A stretch of 64,000 nt of DNA, taken from sequence record MW630116.1; one strand, written 5' to 3'. Shown in pieces: positions 9,017 through 62,216 of this stretch. This DNA comes from Escherichia phage vB_EcoM-ZQ3. Every line of letters starts with the position of its first letter. Position 1 is the stretch's first letter. The notes beneath the pieces are model-generated. The model saw only the letters and a list, made by a program, of their open reading frames with translations. It was not told where the DNA came from and did not search any database. The position numbers and the translations under genes are program-made.

Positions 9017-9652
9017 ATGAAAACTACTCCTATTACTATCGCTATTGACGCAATCATAAAACAAGCTTCTTCTTTGGCCGCTATGGCCAAAGTAATTAGT
9101 CAAAACCCTGCTCGTTATAATGCTATTCTAGAAACTCTTCGACGCCCAGGACTTAGTAATTATGAAAGCCGAGTAATTATTACAGGTGTTGGTAAGAATG
9201 CTAATATTGCAACTAAAGCTTCTGAGACATTTGCTTCACTCGGTATCCCGAGTATGTACTTGAACACTGGGCATTATTCTCACGGTGATGCAGGATTCAT
9301 TGCGCCTAATGATGTGTTGATTCATATTAGTCGTTCTGGTAAAACTGAAGAAATGATAGGCGTGGCTAAGCATCTTAAAATGATTCGTCCGAACGTCAAA
9401 CAGATTCTGTTGCATTGTAACCCGGACATTCCACAAGAATACGAAGCTCTTTTTGATTATACGTTCTGTACAGGCATCGCAGTAGAGGTTGATGAGAATT
9501 CTCTGGCTCCGACCATGTCCACTACATTGTTGTTAGCGCTTATCGATACGTTTGCTATCAACCTTTCGTCTGAACGTGGATTTACCTCTAATGACTTCCT
9601 TAAGTTCCACCCTGGCGGTGCACTAGGTGCCATGTTACGAGGCGAACAATGA
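9017..9652 (+). CDS. SIS-domain sugar-phosphate isomerase, KdsD/GutQ-like D-arabinose-5-phosphate isomerase (no CBS domains)
   Basis: VGKNANIATKASETFASLGIPS...HGD...ISRSGKT and LAPTMSTT...FHPGGALG closely parallel the KdsD SIS core, including conserved Lys and His. Confidence 0.8.
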   Translation: MKTTPITIAIDAIIKQASSLAAMAKVISQNPARYNAILETLRRPGLSNYESRVIITGVGKNANIATKASETFASLGIPSMYLNTGHYSHGDAGFIAPNDVLIHISRSGKTEEMIGVAKHLKMIRPNVKQILLHCNPDIPQEYEALFDYTFCTGIAVEVDENSLAPTMSTTLLLALIDTFAINLSSERGFTSNDFLKFHPGGALGAMLRGEQ

Positions 9653-9792
9653 AAGCAATAACAATAGGACTTTTACTATTGATGCTTGTCATGACTATCT
9701 ACTGGAGCTTAACGGCTCCAGTAATGATTCCGACTCTTATAATCGGATGGATTATGATTGGACTACAAGCAAAGTATGAATGCTTTAACTAG
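9649..9792 (+). CDS. possible 47-aa small membrane protein
   Basis: ATGA overlap with upstream stop; hydrophobic sequence; below the track size cutoff. Confidence 0.35.
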   Translation: MKAITIGLLLLMLVMTIYWSLTAPVMIPTLIIGWIMIGLQAKYECFN

Positions 9793-9833
9793 AATAGTGT
9801 ACAATACTCCTACTTACCAATGAGGACCACAAC

Positions 9834-11522
9834 ATGAAAAAAGCTGTTATTCTTGGTGCTGGACTGGCAACTCGTTTGTATCCAATAACGCATCATATTC
9901 CTAAGGTGCTTGTTAACTATAAACAAGACACTATTCTGAGCAATTTGTATACAATTTATTCTGACCTTGGCGCAGACGAAATTATTGTAGTAGTTCATTC
10001 AAAATTTGCTGAAACTGTTCGAGCTTATTGTGAGCAAGAAGGGTTCAATGTGACTATTCGTACAGTTGATGAAGCGTATGGTTCTGCTTATGCTCTTGCT
10101 AAATTACACAAAGATTTAAACGGCCATAATGTAATTGTTAACTGGTGTGATATTATTCCTGATTTTGGTTCGTGGTCTTGGAATGTTAACGCAATCTATG
10201 TTAAGGGTGACGAATGTCGATATAATTTCGACGGTGAAAATATCACTAATGTAGGTTCAACAGGTGGTAATGTTGTAGGAATTTATCAGTTCAAAGACTG
10301 GGAATTCTATATGGGTTCTACTGATGAGGAAATTCATGAATACTGCAAAGGACGTGATTTCGTAGAATTCCTTTACGGCAGCGCATTCAATAAATCAGAG
10401 CTTATGAATATCATCGACCTTGGTGATATGCCTAAACTTGAAAAAGCTCATGAAGTTCGTGAACTTAATCGTAGTTTTAATGCAGTTGAAATTGGCGAAG
10501 AAACGGTAACAAAGATTGCTTTAACAGAACAGGGCGTTGCACTTCAAAAAGATGAAGTCAATTGGTATAAGAAAGTTAAATCAGATTCAGTTCCACGGAT
10601 TGTAAGTTATCATCCTGGCGGCCACTTTATTATGGAACGTATTAAAGGTAAGCCGGCATTTGAATATATTAAATCCAAATCAAGTCTTGCTCGTCCACAA
10701 ATTGTTGATGCAATTTTAGATGCACTGAAATTCAGCACAGACACTTATTTTGTAAGTCCTGAAACTGTTCGTCGTGATTTCACTAAAGAGTTCTATACGA
10801 AAGTTATTGATCGTTGTGAAAGTATTCAACCATTGATTGATTCATTTGGTAAAATCACACATGTGAACTACACTAAGATTGGGCGTCTGAAGCCAATGCT
10901 GAAACAAGCTTTAGAACACCTTATTCGTTATCATAACCGTTCTCAGGGACAGTACTCTGTTATTCATGGTGACCCGAACTTCAGTAATACTATGATTACT
11001 GATAATGGTGAAGTCAAGTTTATCGACCCTCGTGGATATTTTGGTGAAACCAAGATTTATGGGCCAAAATTGTATGATGAAGCTAAAGTGCTTTATGCTG
11101 TTTCAGGTTATGATGAATTCAACGCTAATCCGACTTGGGGACAGTTTACTATTGATGAAACAACTTGTAATGTGACTATTAACATCAATCCGTTAGTTTA
11201 CAAATATGGAAAGATGAGTTCGTTTAACGAGTATCATCATTTGGCAGTGGCAATTATCTGGATTGCATTGGGTGGTTATTTCAAGAATAATCCACTTAAA
11301 GCGGTAGCCGCATATTATAAAGGTATGGAACTTCTGACTAAGCAATTACGTAACATGGGCCGTGTACTTCAGGACGGCTCTATTAGTTATGACGTAGCAG
11401 AACCTGTAACGGCTACTCTGATTACAAAAAATCCTGGTAAATGGGTACTAACTGATAAAGAAACTGGTGTTTCTTATCGTCCAATCGGTGGCGATATCAC
11501 TCATCAATGGGAACGAATCTAA
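9834..11522 (+). CDS. bifunctional sugar kinase / sugar-1-phosphate nucleotidyltransferase
   Basis: N-terminus AVILGAGLATRLYPIT (RmlA/GlmU-type NTase motif); C-terminal HGDPNFSNTMIT and KFIDPRG (APH/choline-kinase-like Brenner motif). Confidence 0.8.
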   Translation: MKKAVILGAGLATRLYPITHHIPKVLVNYKQDTILSNLYTIYSDLGADEIIVVVHSKFAETVRAYCEQEGFNVTIRTVDEAYGSAYALAKLHKDLNGHNVIVNWCDIIPDFGSWSWNVNAIYVKGDECRYNFDGENITNVGSTGGNVVGIYQFKDWEFYMGSTDEEIHEYCKGRDFVEFLYGSAFNKSELMNIIDLGDMPKLEKAHEVRELNRSFNAVEIGEETVTKIALTEQGVALQKDEVNWYKKVKSDSVPRIVSYHPGGHFIMERIKGKPAFEYIKSKSSLARPQIVDAILDALKFSTDTYFVSPETVRRDFTKEFYTKVIDRCESIQPLIDSFGKITHVNYTKIGRLKPMLKQALEHLIRYHNRSQGQYSVIHGDPNFSNTMITDNGEVKFIDPRGYFGETKIYGPKLYDEAKVLYAVSGYDEFNANPTWGQFTIDETTCNVTININPLVYKYGKMSSFNEYHHLAVAIIWIALGGYFKNNPLKAVAAYYKGMELLTKQLRNMGRVLQDGSISYDVAEPVTATLITKNPGKWVLTDKETGVSYRPIGGDITHQWERI

Positions 11523-11908
11523 TGCACCGTGTAGAAAACATGCTTAATCTTTGTTTTGATGTCGATGATTGTATAACAGAGTGGAATAACAATCGTGATT
11601 ACGTGAACTTCAAACCAGACGTCGAAATGGTGTCTGCCATTAATGCCCTGTATGATGCAGGGCATACCATAACGCTTTACACTGCTCGCGGTATGAAGTC
11701 AGTCGGTCCTGGTCGTATAGCAATTGACATTCTCCCAAGTCTGATTCAGAACTTGGCAAACATTGGATTGAAGTACCATAATTTGCTAACACATAAACCA
11801 GTATATGATTGGATTATCGACGATAAAGCTATGCGTCCTGACGAATTCAAAGCTCTTATGAATAAAGGCGAATTCGAAACATTTAAATCATATAAACCGA
11901 ATCTATAA
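11522..11908 (+). CDS. small HAD-superfamily phosphatase
   Basis: TAATG overlap; candidate HAD motifs FDVDD (I), LYTARG (II), K in THKPVYD (III), IIDDK (IV). Confidence 0.65.
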   Translation: MHRVENMLNLCFDVDDCITEWNNNRDYVNFKPDVEMVSAINALYDAGHTITLYTARGMKSVGPGRIAIDILPSLIQNLANIGLKYHNLLTHKPVYDWIIDDKAMRPDEFKALMNKGEFETFKSYKPNL

Positions 11909-11964
11909 TAATTTAAGTAAGACCTGCAAAAACCATCGCGTCAATTAACGTGAGATGCAAAAAA

Positions 11965-13125
11965 ATGAATACCTTTAAAATCGGAACGAATTTTGATTTA
12001 GCTCTTCTTGATAAAATCGTAGAGCTCAATAAAACTTATCCTAATAGCTTGATAAATGAAGTATACGGCTCTACAAGAGAAATGGCTTTTGTAGCAGCCA
12101 GACCTGATTTTAGGCTTCCTGACGTTGACAAAAAGATGTTAGAAGATTATGTTAAACGTTGTAACGAATTAGGTATTTGCTTTAACTATACACTCAACAC
12201 GATAAATCCTGGTTCAAAAAGAGAACTAGTTGAGTGGAAGAAGAAAGCTATTCAGGATTATGTTCAGTATCTTTGGTCAATAGGCGTATGGCGTATTACT
12301 ATCGCTAACCCTGTTGTTATGGAAATTGTTCGTGAAGTCAATAAAGACATTGAGATTGAAGTTTCAACAATTCTACATGTTGATGCTGTAACTCAAATCA
12401 AATACTTGCATGACCAGTATAATATCAAAAAGGTCTGCTGTGGAATTCATAAGAACCGTTCAGTTTCTTTCCTGAAGCGTGCAGCAGAGTTTTGCAATAA
12501 GAACAATATAATATTTGAAGTTCTCGTAAATGAATTCTGTTCTAATGCCGGTAAAGGGTATACAACACATTGTAGCTATCGTGACTCTTGCTATATTTTC
12601 CATAGCACAGATGTTACAGTAGATGATGCTAAATCCTTAAATGGATATCCAATGCAACACTGCATTAAAGCTCGTGATACAGACCCATTTAACTGGTTGA
12701 GAACTCGTTTTGTTCGTCCTCAAGATTTGAAACTTTATAATGATATTGGTATCACTCAATTCAAAGTTTCAGGACGTACAGGTAGCACAGACTACATTTT
12801 GAAAGTTCTTGAAGCTTATGCTTCTGAAAAATTTGAAGGTAATTTGTTGGAATTGTGGAAGCCTTTAGAGACCATTTTCACTCTTGAAAATGAGACCGAG
12901 TTTTCACATACGGTAAATATTGAAACCTCTTTGTTAGATGGCTTTTTAGAAAAAAGGTGGTTCAAACATCCAGATTTCGATTGTGCTAATGAAATCTGCG
13001 GGACGACGTGTACATATTGTGAAAGATATTATAAACGTCAGTTATCTAAAAATGGGTTATCAGAAAACTCTATATCTATTATTGATATAACTAACTCTGA
13101 CGACGCTTTGAGGTACCCAGAATGA
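11965..13125 (+). CDS. Cys-rich enzyme of uncertain family (possibly peptidase-U32-like Fe-S TIM-barrel protein)
   Basis: 386 aa from ATG 11965; cysteine clusters EFCSNAGKGYTTHCSYRDSC and C-terminal CANEICGTTCTYC; QFKVSGR resembles the U32 KIEGR-type motif; assignment tentative. Confidence 0.75.
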   Translation: MNTFKIGTNFDLALLDKIVELNKTYPNSLINEVYGSTREMAFVAARPDFRLPDVDKKMLEDYVKRCNELGICFNYTLNTINPGSKRELVEWKKKAIQDYVQYLWSIGVWRITIANPVVMEIVREVNKDIEIEVSTILHVDAVTQIKYLHDQYNIKKVCCGIHKNRSVSFLKRAAEFCNKNNIIFEVLVNEFCSNAGKGYTTHCSYRDSCYIFHSTDVTVDDAKSLNGYPMQHCIKARDTDPFNWLRTRFVRPQDLKLYNDIGITQFKVSGRTGSTDYILKVLEAYASEKFEGNLLELWKPLETIFTLENETEFSHTVNIETSLLDGFLEKRWFKHPDFDCANEICGTTCTYCERYYKRQLSKNGLSENSISIIDITNSDDALRYPE

Positions 13126-13283
13126 TTTCTAGAAAAACTTTTAACCACCAACTTAATGAAGAGATTTTGACTACGAAAATTAACAGCAACGAACAAATTC
13201 TTAAAAAGGCCCTGATGGGCCTGTTTGAAACTAAAGCGGCTAAAGTGATTAAAGAAACCTGTTCAACTAGAATACTATGCTGA
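13122..13283 (+). CDS. possible 53-aa small protein
   Basis: ATGA overlap with upstream stop; no homology recognised. Confidence 0.3.
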   Translation: MISRKTFNHQLNEEILTTKINSNEQILKKALMGLFETKAAKVIKETCSTRILC

Positions 13284-13359
13284 TGCATTTCTTCATAGTG
13301 TTCTTGGAAGTATCGATGCTGAAGCTTTACGTTATATCAACATTGTCAAGAAATTCAAA

Positions 13360-13385
13360 TAAGCTTTACGAATTGAGTATATAAT
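13360..13385 (+). promoter_or_regulatory. putative MotA-dependent middle promoter
   Basis: taaGCTTTA box, 11-nt gap, TATAAT 13380-13385; aagctttacg also at 13322. Confidence 0.45.
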
Positions 13386-13404
13386 AAATTGTATTGAGGT
13401 AAAC

Positions 13405-14121
13405 ATGGGAAAACATAACACAATGAAATATATCAAAGCCGCAGATTTTCAAACCGCATTTAAAGCAGTCAATCGTGAAATTTTAGAAAACCCGGAATTC
13501 GTAACTGATTCTCGTATTGGACGTTGTAATGAAATTGGGTCTATGACAGTAGTTGTTGATACCCCTTCATCATTCAAAATGACCGACCCACGTATTAATC
13601 GCATCTCTTATGAATATGCTGAAGATTTCTGGAAGTTTATGATTTCTGGTGGTACCAACGCAGAAGAAGCGTTTAAGGCATATCCTAATGTCGCTAAATT
13701 TATTTCTAAACCAAAATCAGATGTTTTGCCTGCAAACTTCAACACTTTCTATGGTCCACGAATTGCGGCCCAGTTACCAGCTCTTCTAAAAGAACTTAAA
13801 GAGAAGCCTAACTCTCGAAGAGTTGTGTTCCAAATTCTAGAAAGTTCTGATCAGGCTTTGCTTGATTCAGACGAAACGCTTGAATATCCATGTACTGACT
13901 CAGTGACTTATTATATTCGTGATGGTAAGCTTTATACCCACTGTCATATGCGTTCTCAGAACTGTGCTGTTGTTATGCAGTTGGATTTTTATCTCCAAGG
14001 AAAATTACTTCATTATATCGCTAACGAATGCGGTGTAGAAGTTGGTGATTATACTCATACCATGGTAAGTGCCCATGTGTTTGAACGTGATTTTGATTAT
14101 GTTAAAGGATTCCTTGACTAA
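13405..14121 (+). CDS. thymidylate-synthase-fold pyrimidine-modifying enzyme, divergent dCMP hydroxymethylase (gene 42)-like
   Basis: 238 aa; NSRRVVFQI, YPCTDSVTYYIRDGKL and SAHVFERDF parallel the T4 gp42/TS motifs SRRGIMIY, FMCTNTVQYLIRDKKI, SLHVYSRHF. Confidence 0.8.
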   Translation: MGKHNTMKYIKAADFQTAFKAVNREILENPEFVTDSRIGRCNEIGSMTVVVDTPSSFKMTDPRINRISYEYAEDFWKFMISGGTNAEEAFKAYPNVAKFISKPKSDVLPANFNTFYGPRIAAQLPALLKELKEKPNSRRVVFQILESSDQALLDSDETLEYPCTDSVTYYIRDGKLYTHCHMRSQNCAVVMQLDFYLQGKLLHYIANECGVEVGDYTHTMVSAHVFERDFDYVKGFLD

Positions 14122-15020
14122 TGGCTATTTTCCGCGTACCTATCTTGAGTATGCGGTCTTATGAAACTGGACAGTATGCTATCCTTAAGGATGGCAACTT
14201 CCAACTTCATTTGCACCGTGCTAATCCGGGTGATGTGATTACATATCCACGTAATGCATCTGATATTAAAGAATGCGAACGTCTTTTTCCAGAATTTAAG
14301 TTTGTTCCATTATGGTATAAAGATAACGCGTATAACACTCGTAAATATTTCTGGTCTGAAAATGAATTTGTGGTTGATTCATTAATTGCTTATTATGATT
14401 GTGATTTTCTAATCACAGATATCACTGGATATGACGGTGCTTTTGATGTGGAATTCAATTTCAATATCACTGCAGACCCTAATAAACCACGTTTTTATAT
14501 TGACGAATTCTTAAAAACCGATATGTTGTCGGTTAATCGTTCACTTCAAACTACTGTGTTGAATAAACGTCAAAAGGAAGTGCTGGTTAACGCTGGTGCC
14601 GATGGTAATAAGATTATCGTAACCCAGAAAGTTATACGTCCTTCCATCATGCAGCGTCTTGTAGGTGATTTGGCTCCTATTCATCTAGATGGTATTTTTC
14701 ATCCATTTCGAATTAGTGACCCGTGCTATCGTTTTGAACAAGTGGTTGAATGTGCAATTCAATTAGGCCAACCGCTTTATATAACCGATCCAAATAATAG
14801 CTTCGACAGAAATAAGTATCCTGAAGAAGCGCTGATTCGAATTTTTAAACCAACTAAAACCGAGTACTATCAAATTCTTAAAGGACGTCCAAAGATTCAA
14901 TATTTCGAAAATCCTGAAGAAGTATTCCATCCAGGTCTTGGTGAGTTCATCTACTTTAATGCTTTAATTTCTTCGCCGTATAATATACCTAAATACGAAG
15001 ATGTCGTAATCGAGGAATAA
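14121..15020 (+). CDS. hypothetical protein (299 aa), function unknown
   Basis: TAATG overlap with the TS-like gene; no recognised motifs. Confidence 0.75.
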   Translation: MAIFRVPILSMRSYETGQYAILKDGNFQLHLHRANPGDVITYPRNASDIKECERLFPEFKFVPLWYKDNAYNTRKYFWSENEFVVDSLIAYYDCDFLITDITGYDGAFDVEFNFNITADPNKPRFYIDEFLKTDMLSVNRSLQTTVLNKRQKEVLVNAGADGNKIIVTQKVIRPSIMQRLVGDLAPIHLDGIFHPFRISDPCYRFEQVVECAIQLGQPLYITDPNNSFDRNKYPEEALIRIFKPTKTEYYQILKGRPKIQYFENPEEVFHPGLGEFIYFNALISSPYNIPKYEDVVIEE

Positions 15021-15021
15021 A

Positions 15022-15570
15022 ATGGCTAAAATTATTTTAGTAGATGGCCCGGATAATGCCGGTAAAACAACTTTCATTAATGACATAATGGAAATTAGTG
15101 AAAGATATGTAAAGATTGATTTCCCTAAACGAACAGTTGACGGACGTTTCGATGTTAAGTCTCGAAATGAAGTTGGCTGTTTCGAAACGATGTTGAATTA
15201 TTTAGACCCTACTAAGATTTATCTGTTAGATCGTGGATATATTAGTAACTGGGTTTACGGACGTATTCGACAAGATGCGGACTCGGTTCTTGACGTTTAT
15301 GAACAGGATTATGTTCGTCTTTGCCAAAACCATGATGTGTTCACAATTATTTTAACACGTAACGAAATGACTGAAAGTTTTGAAGACGACCTTATTACTT
15401 TGTCTTCATTCGGTTTTAATACAGTAATTTCATATTTTGAAGAGTTTGCAATCCATAACGAAATCCAAACGTATCAATTACTTAATCATGATGGTGCTAA
15501 CAAAGTTATAGGATTTAATGCAAGCGAACGTAATAATTTGATTACAGAAATTATCAAATGGGCTCGTTAA
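15022..15570 (+). CDS. P-loop kinase (nucleotide/nucleoside kinase-like)
   Basis: Walker A GPDNAGKTT near N-terminus; LDRGYISNWVYG resembles dNK/TMK-type motif. Confidence 0.8.
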   Translation: MAKIILVDGPDNAGKTTFINDIMEISERYVKIDFPKRTVDGRFDVKSRNEVGCFETMLNYLDPTKIYLLDRGYISNWVYGRIRQDADSVLDVYEQDYVRLCQNHDVFTIILTRNEMTESFEDDLITLSSFGFNTVISYFEEFAIHNEIQTYQLLNHDGANKVIGFNASERNNLITEIIKWAR

Positions 15571-19720: not shown

Positions 19721-19969
19721 ATGGAATTATTCGTAGCTAGTTCAGTAGCTGTTTTAATCGCAGGTATTGGTTCAATCATCATTTACATGTTGCCTTGGGT
19801 AATCGCACTTATTCGTGGCACAAAAAACACAACAGCAATCTTCTTTGTATCTTTACTCTTTAACTGGACGATGATTGGTTGGATTGGAACTTTAATTTGG
19901 TCTATCGTTGCCGAAAAGAAATCTGCTCAGCAGCCTCAACAAGTAATTATTATTCGCGAAAAAGAATAA
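19721..19969 (+). CDS. small inner-membrane protein, superinfection-immunity (Imm)-like
   Basis: 82 aa, two hydrophobic segments; LPWVIALIRG...WTMIGWIGTLIWSI resembles the Imm superinfection-immunity family pattern as I recall it. Confidence 0.6.
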   Translation: MELFVASSVAVLIAGIGSIIIYMLPWVIALIRGTKNTTAIFFVSLLFNWTMIGWIGTLIWSIVAEKKSAQQPQQVIIIREKE

Positions 19970-19973
19970 ACTT

Positions 19974-20003
19974 GTTTACATTATAGATGGACTATAGTAT
20001 AGT
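19974..20003 (+). promoter_or_regulatory. T4-type early promoter
   Basis: GTTTAC, 18-nt spacer, TATAGT, then conserved cctatcaa leader. Confidence 0.45.
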
Positions 20004-20034
20004 AGTCTCCTATCAAATCAACTAAGGAGTTAAA

Positions 20035-20328
20035 ATGAAAAAGTTATCATTGGCAGCAATCTTACTTGCAGTATCATGTGCACCGGCTCCAGTTACAGCA
20101 GGTTATGATAAAGACCTATGTGAGTGGTCAATGACTGCAAATCAAGAAGATGTTGAACAACAAATCTTCTCTGATATCATGAACATCACTAAACGAGACC
20201 GTCCTAATATGGTTAATAAAGTTGTTGAACAACTTAAGTCTGGTGGTATCATGCAGTACAATTATGTTTTGTATTGTGACCCTAATTTCGATAACAAAGA
20301 TATCGTAACCGAAATCACAGGTGAATAA
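20035..20328 (+). CDS. sp: Spackle (periplasmic superinfection-exclusion protein, lysozyme inhibitor)
   Basis: 97 aa with signal peptide; GYDKDLCEWSMTA...QYNYVLYCD matches recalled T4 Sp. Confidence 0.88.
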   Translation: MKKLSLAAILLAVSCAPAPVTAGYDKDLCEWSMTANQEDVEQQIFSDIMNITKRDRPNMVNKVVEQLKSGGIMQYNYVLYCDPNFDNKDIVTEITGE

Positions 20329-20329
20329 T

Positions 20330-20980
20330 ATGATTTATTATATGCACAAAAATGCGCCATTTAAATATGGTAAATTTCCTAATGCACAATGTTATAATAT
20401 AACGCCGAATGAAAATAATAACGGATACCATATTGGTGTAATTTTTGTAATTGTTAAAGATAACGAAATCGTTGCCTGGGCAGATTTTAAAGGTACAACA
20501 TATGATGTTAATCCGGTGCCTTTCACATATTACAATATAATGGATTTGGCATATGATTATAATTGGTTTAATCATGACGCGTTGGCTCATATTGAAGGTG
20601 TAGGATTTGACATCTCATATTCTAGCTATTCATTATGCCCTATGAGCCGAGCTCACGGTAAAGATGCATCATATCTTTCATTTCGGAAACGTGTAAACTT
20701 CAAACGTAGTACAGAGTATGTCGGTGGACTCTTTGTTAAAGATAATAAAATAACCCGTATTAGTTATCCTTTAAGTGTAGGTCAAAAAGATGTTGTTGTT
20801 GATTTAGACTTAACCGAAAATAACATTAATCATATTGCTTCTGTATATTTTGATATTGATGAAAAAATTGTAGTGTGTGGATACGAATTACCGCCTGAAG
20901 AAAAGGCTGAAACAATTGAAGTCGAATTAGAAATTTCTGTTGATGACCAAATATTTAATGCATTTATGAATCGAGGTTAA
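20330..20980 (+). CDS. hypothetical protein in a low-GC segment
   Basis: 216 aa from ATG 20330; AT-rich coding sequence. Confidence 0.6.
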   Translation: MIYYMHKNAPFKYGKFPNAQCYNITPNENNNGYHIGVIFVIVKDNEIVAWADFKGTTYDVNPVPFTYYNIMDLAYDYNWFNHDALAHIEGVGFDISYSSYSLCPMSRAHGKDASYLSFRKRVNFKRSTEYVGGLFVKDNKITRISYPLSVGQKDVVVDLDLTENNINHIASVYFDIDEKIVVCGYELPPEEKAETIEVELEISVDDQIFNAFMNRG

Positions 20981-60779: not shown

Positions 60780-61359
60780 ATTAGTATTCGCATGTGCTCC
60801 GACTAAAACAGTTGATGATAAGCTGGAATATGCTTTTGGATTAGGTGATGGACTTCCATGGAAGCATATCAAACAAGATATGAGTAACTTTGTTGCTCGC
60901 ACTAAAAACACTGTAATGGTTATGGGTGCTAAGACTTTTGCATCATTACCTCGTCTACTACCAGATCGCACTCATGTGGTTGTCACTGATATGGCCAGAA
61001 AACTGCCTAGGACTAAAACCAACGAACTTGCACGGTTCTATATCACCCAATCTGAATTTATTACCTTGGTAACAGGTGGTGAAATTAACCTGTTTAGACC
61101 TGCAACTGACGTACCGTTTAAACTTTCTACTGAACATGTTAATGTCTCGGTTATTGGTGGTCCTGCTTTATTAAAACAAGCACTGCCTTATGCCGATGAA
61201 ATCGTGATGACTAAAATCATTAAGAAATGTCGTGTTAATTCCGATGTTCAACTTGATAAAGATTTCGTCCAAGATATTATGCTTCAACGTTCTATGGTAG
61301 AATCTCATTACTACAGAATCGATGAACTCACCGAAATTACTGAGAGCGTTTATAAATGA
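60772..61359 (+). CDS. frd: dihydrofolate reductase
   Basis: 195 aa from ATG 60772; FGLGDGLPW and VMGAKTF motifs match recalled T4 Frd. Confidence 0.88.
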   Translation: MLKLVFACAPTKTVDDKLEYAFGLGDGLPWKHIKQDMSNFVARTKNTVMVMGAKTFASLPRLLPDRTHVVVTDMARKLPRTKTNELARFYITQSEFITLVTGGEINLFRPATDVPFKLSTEHVNVSVIGGPALLKQALPYADEIVMTKIIKKCRVNSDVQLDKDFVQDIMLQRSMVESHYYRIDELTEITESVYK

Positions 61360-62216
61360 AACAATACCAATACCTAATTAAAGATATCTTAGAAAATGGC
61401 TACGAAACAGACGACCGTACAGGTACCGGCACTATTGCCCTGTTCGGAACTAAATTACGTTGGGATCTGACTAAAGGATTCCCTGCGGTAACAACTAAGA
61501 AATTAGCATGGAAAGCTTGTATTGCCGAGTTACTGTGGTTCATGTCCGGTTCTACTAATGTTAACGAATTACGTCTTCGTACCCATGGTAGTCTAATTGA
61601 AGGTAAAACTATTTGGGACGATAATTACGAAAATCAGGCAAAAGACCTTGGGTACCATAGCGGTGAACTTGGTCCTATATATGGTAAACAATGGCGTGAT
61701 TTCGGCGGTGTAGACCAATTAGTTGAAACAATCGACCGTATTAAAAAATTACCAACTGATCGTCGTCAAATTGTTTCTGCCTGGAATCCAGCTGAAATAA
61801 ATCAAATGGCACTTCCTCCTTGCCATATGTTCTACCAGTTCAATGTGCGTAATGGTCATCTTGATTTACAATGGTATCAACGCAGTGTAGATGTTTTCTT
61901 GGGCCTGCCGTTCAACATTGCCTCGTACGCTGCCTTGACGCATATTGTAGCGAAGATGTGTAACCTTATCCCAGGTGATTTAGTGTTCTCAGGCGGCAAC
62001 ACGCATATCTACAGCAATCATGTAGAACAATGCAAAGAAGTTCTTCGTCGTGAACCTAAAGAGTTGTGTGAATTAGTTATTAACGGATTACCATACAAAT
62101 TTAGACATCTATCAACCGAAGAACAAATCGAATATGTATTAAAACTTCGTCCTAAAGACTTTATTCTTAAAAATTACGAATCACATCCAGCTATCAAAGC
62201 TAAAATGGCGGTATAA
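61356..62216 (+). CDS. td: thymidylate synthase, uninterrupted
   Basis: 286 aa continuous ORF; PPCHMFYQF active-site motif; ATGA overlap with frd. Confidence 0.93.
   Translation: MKQYQYLIKDILENGYETDDRTGTGTIALFGTKLRWDLTKGFPAVTTKKLAWKACIAELLWFMSGSTNVNELRLRTHGSLIEGKTIWDDNYENQAKDLGYHSGELGPIYGKQWRDFGGVDQLVETIDRIKKLPTDRRQIVSAWNPAEINQMALPPCHMFYQFNVRNGHLDLQWYQRSVDVFLGLPFNIASYAALTHIVAKMCNLIPGDLVFSGGNTHIYSNHVEQCKEVLRREPKELCELVINGLPYKFRHLSTEEQIEYVLKLRPKDFILKNYESHPAIKAKMAV

Follow-up and report, generated by a model that had tools for sequence, protein, structure and literature searches.

Two types of phage enzyme with the thymidylate synthase (TS) fold act on deoxycytidine monophosphate (dCMP). T4 gp42 uses methylenetetrahydrofolate and adds CH2OH, whereas the enzyme of the AfhB type uses flavin and O2 and adds OH (PMC13326640). 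Here, we analyzed a 64,000-nucleotide (nt) stretch of Escherichia phage vB_EcoM-ZQ3 (record MW630116.1), called the window below, in which an open reading frame (ORF) with the TS fold lies at positions 13405 to 14121. The window comes from a Mosigvirus, the RB69-like genus of T-even phages, and the 25 kb at its start are 98.0% identical to Escherichia phage HY126. Judging from sequence and modeled structure, this ORF almost certainly codes for the dCMP 5-hydroxylase of Mosigvirus, which has been described as AfhB in HY126 and as 5-hydroxy-dCMP (5hodCMP) synthase gp48 in RB69. The enzyme is thus already known, and the explanation of the ORF was published in 2025-26 for these two phages.

The arabinose on RB69 DNA is joined directly to cytosine C5 via oxygen (Lee et al., NAR 2026, PMC13326640). 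In the same study, expression of RB69 gp48 together with a phage deoxynucleoside monophosphate (dNMP) kinase in E. coli gave 5-hydroxy-deoxycytidine (5hodC) in host DNA, 18O from 18O2 entered the product of gp48, and flavin mononucleotide (FMN) co-purified with the enzyme. T4 gp42, examined in the assay shared with gp48, gave 5-hydroxymethyl-deoxycytidine (5hmdC) and not 5hodC. For HY126, a crystal structure with flavin and an in vitro reconstitution are attributed by PMC13326640 to He et al. (Nat Chem Biol 2026). Two PDB entries were released on 2025-07-16, 9IQC under the title 'Monooxygenase dependent on riboflavin with dCMP and FAD' and 9IQU under the title 'phage HY126 dCMP hydroxylase-AfhB with substrate dCMP'.

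The ORF product matches characterized dCMP hydroxylases

The gene under study is as follows.

13405..14121, plus strand: predicted dCMP 5-hydroxylase gene (AfhB / 5hodCMP synthase); ORF of 238 amino acids (aa) with an ATG start, TS fold and a match to Pfam PF00303

Its product is identical to RB69 gp48 at 236 of 238 residues and to HY126 AfhB (XAN60475.1) at 233 of 238. The five substitutions relative to HY126 (T17S, E31Q, N85D, E87K and V107A) are exactly the differences from PDB chain 9IQC_A. By megablast, 153 phage records match the gene at 95-99% identity.

We modeled the product with AlphaFold. The run on the single sequence, without homologues, reached a pLDDT of only 37, and we therefore used the AF2 model built on an alignment of 76 homologues, which had a pLDDT of 91.8. 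The top Foldseek matches of this model were 9IQC and 9IQU, with TM scores of 0.95-0.97 and a root-mean-square deviation of 1.2 Å. Next in rank came MilA, the CMP 5-hydroxymethylase of mildiomycin biosynthesis (PDB 5JNH/5B6D; TM 0.82-0.84), and then the thymidylate synthases including ThyA. MilA, the best fold match outside AfhB, is cytosine-specific and also matched the product in sequence over its full length. However, it shares only 23-24% identity, acts on a ribonucleotide, performs a folate-dependent hydroxymethylation and is about 80 aa longer. AfhB (9IQC, 9IQU and 9IR2) and RB69 gp48, by comparison, resemble the ORF product in length, signature residues, cassette position and predicted structure, and differ from it by 2-5 conservative substitutions away from the signature residues, so that we regard the three as in effect one enzyme.

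Several points weigh against this identification. The activity is known from proteins that are 98-99% identical, and the sequence here differs from RB69 gp48 by N85D and V107A, neither of which falls at a signature position. The in vitro reconstitution of He et al. is cited here through PMC13326640 and the PDB titles, and the identity of the flavin is given in conflicting terms, as FAD (flavin adenine dinucleotide) and riboflavin in the PDB title and as FMN in PMC13326640. Finally, the Cys163 adduct and the flavin-hydroperoxide mechanism discussed below are what we infer for this enzyme.

Four signature positions tell the hydroxylase from its relatives

The 5hodCMP synthases have been defined, in ThyA numbering, by the diagnostic change D169N together with N177D, the replacement of L143 by Glu or Asp and the retention of C146 (Lee et al., PMC13326640). 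We read the same four positions in the window protein and in its relatives. The numbering of the E. coli ThyA sequence used here agreed with the residues as published. At positions 143/146/169/177, the residues are:

Window protein: E160 / C163 / N186 / D194
T4 gp42: D / C / D / D
Td of the window and E. coli ThyA: L / C / D / N

Asn186 lies in the motif RSQN of the product, at a site held by Asp in T4 gp42 (Asp171), in Td and in ThyA. In the 76-sequence family alignment, E160, C163, D194 and R138/R139 were invariant and N186 was at least 90% conserved; R138/R139 are the phosphate-binding residues and C163 is the nucleophile. A HMMER search of 1.84 billion cluster representatives returned 2724 matches at E<=1e-3. 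Of the 150 best matches, about half carried E-C-N-D and the remainder mostly D-C-D-D, while Asn177 occurred in none. Asp stood at the N177 equivalent in all of the 150 best cluster representatives that align there, except for two anomalous entries. The ORF product therefore combines the TS fold, D169N, the C146/N177D/L143E set, a characterized close relative and a glycosylation cassette, as a 5hodCMP synthase does.

With T4 gp42, the product shares the TS fold, the dCMP substrate, the catalytic Cys, the Asp at the N177 equivalent and an acidic residue at the L143 equivalent. C163 and D194 align with the catalytic Cys148 and the cytosine-specifying Asp179 of T4 gp42, but these residues are common to both families and do not discriminate between them. 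What does differ is the Asp at ThyA position 169, which is kept in the folate-dependent TS members that we examined and is Asn186 here. The structure of the T4 enzyme is given in PDB entries 1B5D and 1B5E.

Most database records name this gene a thymidylate synthase, in line with its PF00303 match, its place in PHROG 160 ('thymidylate synthase') and the names in GenBank. ThyA and T4 Td do share the fold, the Cys nucleophile and the Arg-Arg phosphate clamp with the product. However, the uracil-specifying Asn177 is Asp194 here, the hydrophobic Leu143 is Glu160 and Asp169 is Asn186, and substrate, cofactor and product are all different. The product lacks the C-terminal 40-50 residues of ThyA and T4 Td. 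Every NCBIfam thymidylate synthase model stayed far under its curated cut-off, the best scoring 68 bits against 174.55. In addition, a genuine Td, at 89% identity to its T4 counterpart, is encoded elsewhere in the window, and the ORF product shares 22% identity with it over 115 aa. That the ORF encodes a thymidylate synthase is thus the least probable of the identities we weighed, and we give it almost no weight.

Some metagenomic relatives of the hydroxylase, P0124, P0126, P0127 and P0131 (427-463 aa) and P0159 (341 aa), carry a C-terminal fusion to a histidine phosphatase (His_Phos_1) or a nucleotide pyrophosphohydrolase (MazG). We looked for a flavin reductase domain in these fused proteins and found none, the extra domains being His_Phos_1 and MazG. 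The MazG fusion fits a channel leading from dCTP through dCMP to 5hodCMP.

The ORF product is an outlier among the T4-like proteins of the window

The preliminary description, made from the letters alone, had regarded the ORF as gene-42-like and as far more diverged from T4 than its neighbors. This was borne out by pairwise comparison of 11 genes, including the ORF, with their T4 counterparts. BLASTP aligned the product to T4 gp42 with 54 identities over 218 residues (25%, E 3e-13), so that the high identity which would have spoken for a mere gp42 copy was not seen. The other window proteins compare with T4 as follows.

gp43: 62% identity
UvsX: 68% identity
gp41: 86% identity
gp40: 82% identity
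RegA: 79% identity
gp32: 90% identity
Ndd: 60% identity
Dda: 78% identity
23015..23536, plus strand: dCTPase gp56, T4-like, 72% identical to T4 gp56
61356-62216: Td, the second TS-fold gene, 89% identity over T4 td exon 1

At 25% against 60-90% for these ten proteins, the ORF product is a clear outlier and lacks the orthologue-level similarity that its neighbors show. The most informative control is Td, the genuine thymidylate synthase of the phage and a paralogue with the same fold. The short motif pairs listed earlier as shared with T4 gp42 are also correct, with SRRGIMIY and CTNTVQYLIRD in T4 and SRRVVFQI (aa 137-144) and CTDSVTYYIRD (aa 163-173) in the translation of the ORF. In phmmer, the product scored 41.8 bits against E. 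coli ThyA but only 29.9 bits against T4 gp42. T4 dCMP hydroxymethylase did not appear among the 60 best PDB sequence matches of the product or the 50 best Foldseek matches of its model.

Two enzyme families fill one slot in different phage lineages

A distance of this size could also arise if the ORF were a true but fast-evolved gene 42 orthologue, a folate-dependent dCMP hydroxymethylase in a phage whose DNA carries arabosyl-hydroxymethylcytosine. The slot between gene 43 and uvsX, the fold, the catalytic Cys and the cytosine-specifying Asp are indeed shared with T4 gp42, as is a genomic position adjoining a DNA glycosyltransferase gene. Many GenBank records name the gene dCMP hydroxymethylase, and the same was assumed by Thomas et al. 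2018, who assigned arabinosyl-hydroxymethylcytosine to the phage DNA.

To see how the two families are distributed, we ran tblastn over 50,697 phage records. The window type was found at 97% identity or more in Mosigvirus and at 68-80% in other Straboviridae genera, in phages of Klebsiella, Serratia, Providencia, Pseudomonas and Acinetobacter, the last with 65 records. Next in rank were Rhizobium phages with about 32% identity, followed by T4-type phages with about 26%. Rhizobium phages likewise make 5-hydroxycytosine (5hoC) (Lee et al., PMC13326640). The T4 type was found at 93-100% in Tequatrovirus and at 55-78% in phages of Citrobacter, Klebsiella, Enterobacter, Cronobacter and Aeromonas. 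In Mosigviruses, the T4 type matched at 24.8% only and at one place per genome, namely the gene at 13405-14121; since this is their sole T4-type match, Mosigviruses have no gene 42 orthologue. No intermediates between the AfhB-type and gp42-type families were found in the phage genomes, and the identity ranges of the two did not overlap.

The hydroxylase family itself is well conserved. Named phages that infect Klebsiella, Yersinia, Pectobacterium, Serratia, Pseudomonas, Proteus, Acinetobacter and Shewanella show 61-87% identity, and the 120 closest sequence clusters 53-87%. Fast evolution is therefore not the cause of the 25% identity to T4 gp42, and we rejected a fast-evolving orthologue on this ground and on the lack of intermediates. 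The replacement of T4 Asp171 (ThyA Asp169) by Asn186 and the opposite outcomes in one assay, 5hodC from the 99%-identical RB69 enzyme and 5hmdC from T4 gp42 (PMC13326640), further argue against it. The assignment of 2018 is now called erroneous, and the idea has already been refuted for RB69 and HY126. We therefore consider a gene 42 orthologue very improbable here, and prefer the dCMP 5-hydroxylase. As far as the sequences indicate, the low identity reflects two old alternative TS subfamilies that fill one genomic slot in different T4-like lineages.

Proposed route from dCMP to arabinosylated DNA

The proteins with 98-99% identity have been shown to bind a flavin and to convert dCMP to 5-hydroxy-dCMP with oxygen from O2, and in these phages the addition of arabosyl groups takes place on DNA. 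On this basis, the following pathway may be proposed for the window. The phage dCTPase gp56, whose gene is present in the window and whose role is taken over from T4, would supply dCMP. Cys163 would then attack C6 of dCMP, the TS fold and its nucleophile being kept, while Asp194 would read the N3/N4 edge of cytosine and Arg138/Arg139 would hold the phosphate. The activated C5 would be hydroxylated by a loosely bound reduced flavin and O2, with no methylene from folate; here the C5 carbanion may attack a flavin hydroperoxide, and the reduced flavin may come from a host reductase. In the ORF, the nucleophile and the phosphate clamp are conserved, as is the Asp that reads cytosine, and the Asp169 equivalent is lost.

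The resulting 5-hydroxy-dCMP would be phosphorylated, as the RB69 dNMP kinase does (PMC13326640), and the 5hodC nucleotide would be incorporated into DNA by gp43. On the DNA, the 5-OH would be arabinosylated by the transferase encoded directly downstream, with UDP-arabinose provided by the upstream cassette genes. It had been suggested earlier that the enzyme may act on another substrate than gp42 or use another carbon donor. The chemistry is indeed distinct, but dCMP remains the substrate, and the Asp that specifies cytosine is present as D194. The idea of another carbon donor fails, since RB69 gp48 and HY126 AfhB use O2 and a flavin to place a hydroxyl on C5, without transfer of carbon.

Reading frame and upstream signals

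The PF00303 match covers only the C-terminal half of the product (aa 122-235, E 2.3e-15). The best NCBIfam match, TIGR03283 (methanogen-type short thymidylate synthase), spans the full length (aa 9-233, E 7e-19) and is well under its cut-off, which hints that archaeal short TS-like proteins may be nearer kin of the product than bacterial ThyA. Two candidate signals precede the gene.

13363..13385, plus strand: possible T4-type middle promoter, GCTTTA (MotA-box-like)-N11-TATAAT, proposed from the sequence
13396..13399, plus strand: Shine-Dalgarno GAGG, 5 nt before ATG 13405, read directly from the sequence

A scan of the plus strand upstream of the ORF for sigma-70 promoters found none. GCTTTA-N11-TATAAT resembles the T4 middle-promoter consensus, and may act as a MotA-dependent middle promoter.

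The hydroxylase gene belongs to an arabinosylation cassette

Between gene 43 and uvsX, the window genes from 9017 to 15570 correspond gene for gene to RB69 gp55-gp45. Around the hydroxylase gene, these are:

9017..9652, plus strand: arabinose-5-phosphate isomerase, RB69 gp55 homologue; NCBIfam KpsF/GutQ E 2e-32, KdsD E 1e-30, and annotation in relatives
9834..11522, plus strand: bifunctional sugar kinase / nucleotidyltransferase, AfhE, RB69 gp52:53; Pfam NTP_transferase and a weak APH kinase match
11507..11908, plus strand: HAD-type sugar phosphatase, AfhF, RB69 gp51; TIGR01689 (capsule-biosynthesis phosphatase) E 4e-13 and HY126 annotation, with the function as PMC13326640 cites it from He et al.
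11965..13125, plus strand: U32-family predicted Fe-S protein, RB69 gp50; Pfam Peptidase_U32 E 6.6e-11; start in the ORF list GTG 11950
13122..13362, plus strand: frameshifted remnant of RB69 gp49 (phrog_8601); DNA alignment with NRG-P0074, HY126 and RB69, and PHROG match
14121..15020, plus strand: first DNA arabinosyltransferase, RB69 gp46:47; ORF, phrog_3891, 46% identity to the Lazarus homologue, function from PMC13326640
15022..15570, plus strand: thymidylate-kinase-like nucleotide kinase, RB69 gp45; phrog_761 and Table 1 of PMC13326640

The AfhE-type protein makes UDP-arabinose, according to PMC13326640 in citing He et al. The true start of the HAD phosphatase gene is probably ATG 11522. 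The genes at 9834-11522 and 14121-15020 are intact in the window, whereas each is split into two ORFs in the RB69 reference (gp52/53 and gp46/47), splits that Lee et al. ascribe to sequencing errors (PMC13326640). The arabinosyltransferase start overlaps the hydroxylase stop by 1 nt (14121), an arrangement that may couple the translation of the two genes.

In Mosigvirus, Kanagawavirus, Winklervirus, Dhakavirus and Lazarusvirus, the constant partners of the hydroxylase are a glycosyltransferase, a kinase, a HAD phosphatase and the nucleotidyltransferase/kinase, and its slot has gene 43 on one side and uvsX or gene 40 on the other. Compared with Acinetobacter phage Lazarus, the window proteins are 69% (AfhB), 57% (nucleotidyltransferase/kinase), 46% (glycosyltransferase) and 46% (kinase) identical, against 59% for gp41. 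The cassette has diverged about as far as the core, which makes it an old possession of Straboviridae rather than a recent import. The earlier proposal that the enzyme had arrived with the cassette thus holds in so far as it is a fixed cassette member in five genera, but not in the sense of a recent import.

In the gp49 remnant, an extra A in the run 13255-13257 leaves a product of 53 aa with a stop at 13281-13283, as compared to 79 aa in the intact form of RB69 and NRG-P0074. Because HY126 shares the insertion and nearby substitutions, we regard the frameshift as an allele of the lineage and not a read error, and the gp49 homologue appears to be dispensable.

Other differences in gene order were observed around the cassette. 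Homing-endonuclease insertions lie between the nucleotidyltransferase and HAD genes in NRG-P0074 (L001, 6403-7164) and between the HAD and U32 genes in Virsaitis27 (L006, 4352-4990); the window carries neither, having no insertion at 11500-11960. The gene for superinfection immunity, imm, lies between genes 42 and 43 in T4, adjoins gene 43 in JS98 and is downstream of gene 41 in Mosigvirus annotation; by homology to L004 (19921-20599) and L001 (15746-15994), it would be at about 19900-20600 in the window. Since imm is placed elsewhere in Mosigviruses, the gene 42-43 interval has been remodelled. The thymidylate-kinase-like gene (15022-15570) is present in every version of the cassette, although the gene-1-type dNMP kinase already phosphorylates 5hodCMP (PMC13326640).

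A U32 protein may provide a second, anaerobic route

The AfhB-type enzyme requires O2 (PMC13326640), and for this reason we considered the neighboring U32 protein (11965-13125) as a possible anaerobic route. We tentatively suggest that, in addition to the hydroxylase, these phages might have a second route to 5-hydroxycytosine, in which the U32 protein would act without O2 and depend on prephenate, although we hold this to be less probable than its absence. With equal reserve, in many related genera the U32 route might be fed by a phage chorismate mutase encoded between the U32 and hydroxylase genes. Chorismate mutase makes prephenate.

The gene neighborhood is consistent with such a route. 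The U32 gene was found next to the cassette in 221 records of phages whose hosts are Enterobacterales or Shewanella, with identities of 80% or more throughout. A chorismate mutase gene stands between the U32 and hydroxylase genes in 48 records, from at least 11 Enterobacterales host genera and including Kanagawavirus and Winklervirus (L005, 4983-7089; L006, 4992-7197), and these genes match Pfam CM_2 with E 1e-9 to 2e-11. Acinetobacter is a strict aerobe; the U32 gene is missing in Acinetobacter phage Lazarus, and Acinetobacter is not among the listed host genera with U32.

The family relationships point the same way. Among U32 proteins, RlhA of E. coli produces 5-hydroxycytidine in 23S rRNA and needs Fe-S clusters and prephenate (PMC5727448), so that its outcome, a C5-hydroxylated cytosine, is the one proposed for the phage protein. 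The phage family matched RlhA in hhalign (probability 83%, E 9e-6, 203 columns), with Cys208 and Cys214 aligned to the cysteines of the RlhA U32 motif. Among 121 homologues nine cysteines are invariant (Cys163/197/208/214/238 and C345-x4-C-x3-C-x2-C357), and conserved cysteines in both the motif and the C terminus may be features in common with RlhA, as may the link to prephenate through the chorismate mutase gene. However, the similarity is remote, and RlhA acts on rRNA, whereas a deoxynucleotide or DNA would be the substrate of the phage protein, by analogy. A precedent for paired routes is tRNA hydroxylation by the O2-dependent TrhO and the prephenate-dependent TrhP (PMC6599085).

On the other hand, the route is proposed from homology and gene neighborhood. 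Coliphage JS98 (Dhakavirus) has the cassette without U32. Mosigviruses have no recognizable chorismate mutase, and the ORF in that position is frameshifted in the window. The similarity to TrhP and UbiU is weak. The protein appears as a 'sugar or heterocycle reductase' in the table of Lee et al. (PMC13326640), and He et al. and Mahler et al. may give it another role. The canonical U32 cysteine spacing is CX6CX15CX3-4C. The window protein, with C197-x10-C208-x5-C214-x23-C238, does not reproduce it. Pfam detected no DUF3656 domain in the 11965-13125 product, and a PDB sequence search with the U32 protein gave no matches. We found no literature linking U32, chorismate mutase and phage, a search whose scope did not extend to He et al. 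2026 and Mahler et al. 2025.

In the window, the short reading frame that starts at 13122 occupies the position of the chorismate mutase of other genera. We considered whether it is a diverged chorismate mutase, and this was unsupported: it had no Pfam (CM_2) match at E<=1, 22-23% identity in MAFFT alignment and no shared motif. U32 homologues of about 50-55% identity also occur in other phage-like contigs (L007, 6001-7891; L008, 5504-7826; L010, 6001-8888), in the neighborhood of nucleotide-metabolism genes, with genes for dCMP deaminase, UDG, Pol III alpha, NT5C, a deoxynucleoside kinase and a protein of the DAHP/KDO8P-synthase family. No TS-like gene lay within 6 kb of these homologues, which neither supports nor refutes the link. 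If the U32 route is true, the phage could make its fully modified DNA in the anoxic gut as well. The pair of routes would then resemble the aerobic and anaerobic ribonucleotide reductases that T-even phages have side by side, as well as TrhO/TrhP.

Annotation and biological meaning

The GenBank names for the hydroxylase gene are mostly 'thymidylate synthase' or 'dCMP hydroxymethylase', and PHROGs places the hydroxylase and T4 gp42 in one group, phrog_160. Other cassette genes are also misnamed in NRG-P0074 and RB69, where 'dCMP deaminase' is used for the nucleotidyltransferase/kinase and 'phosphoheptose isomerase' for the HAD phosphatase. Given this misnaming and the joint PHROG, the modification chemistry is routinely mis-predicted for hundreds of therapeutic-candidate coliphages. 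The four ThyA positions 143/146/169/177 offer a test that tells three activities apart from the sequence, E-C-N-D indicating dCMP 5-hydroxylase, D-C-D-D the dCMP hydroxymethylase of T4 gp42 and L-C-D-N the thymidylate synthase of ThyA and Td.

Taken together, our analysis removes a tempting misreading, as the gene at 13405-14121 represents a different enzyme family and not a diverged copy of the T4 dCMP hydroxymethylase. The hydroxylase is a striking, though published, case in which the scaffold of a folate enzyme has come to serve flavin/O2 chemistry, and its product, 5-hydroxy-dCMP, is the anchor for the arabinose coat on phage DNA.

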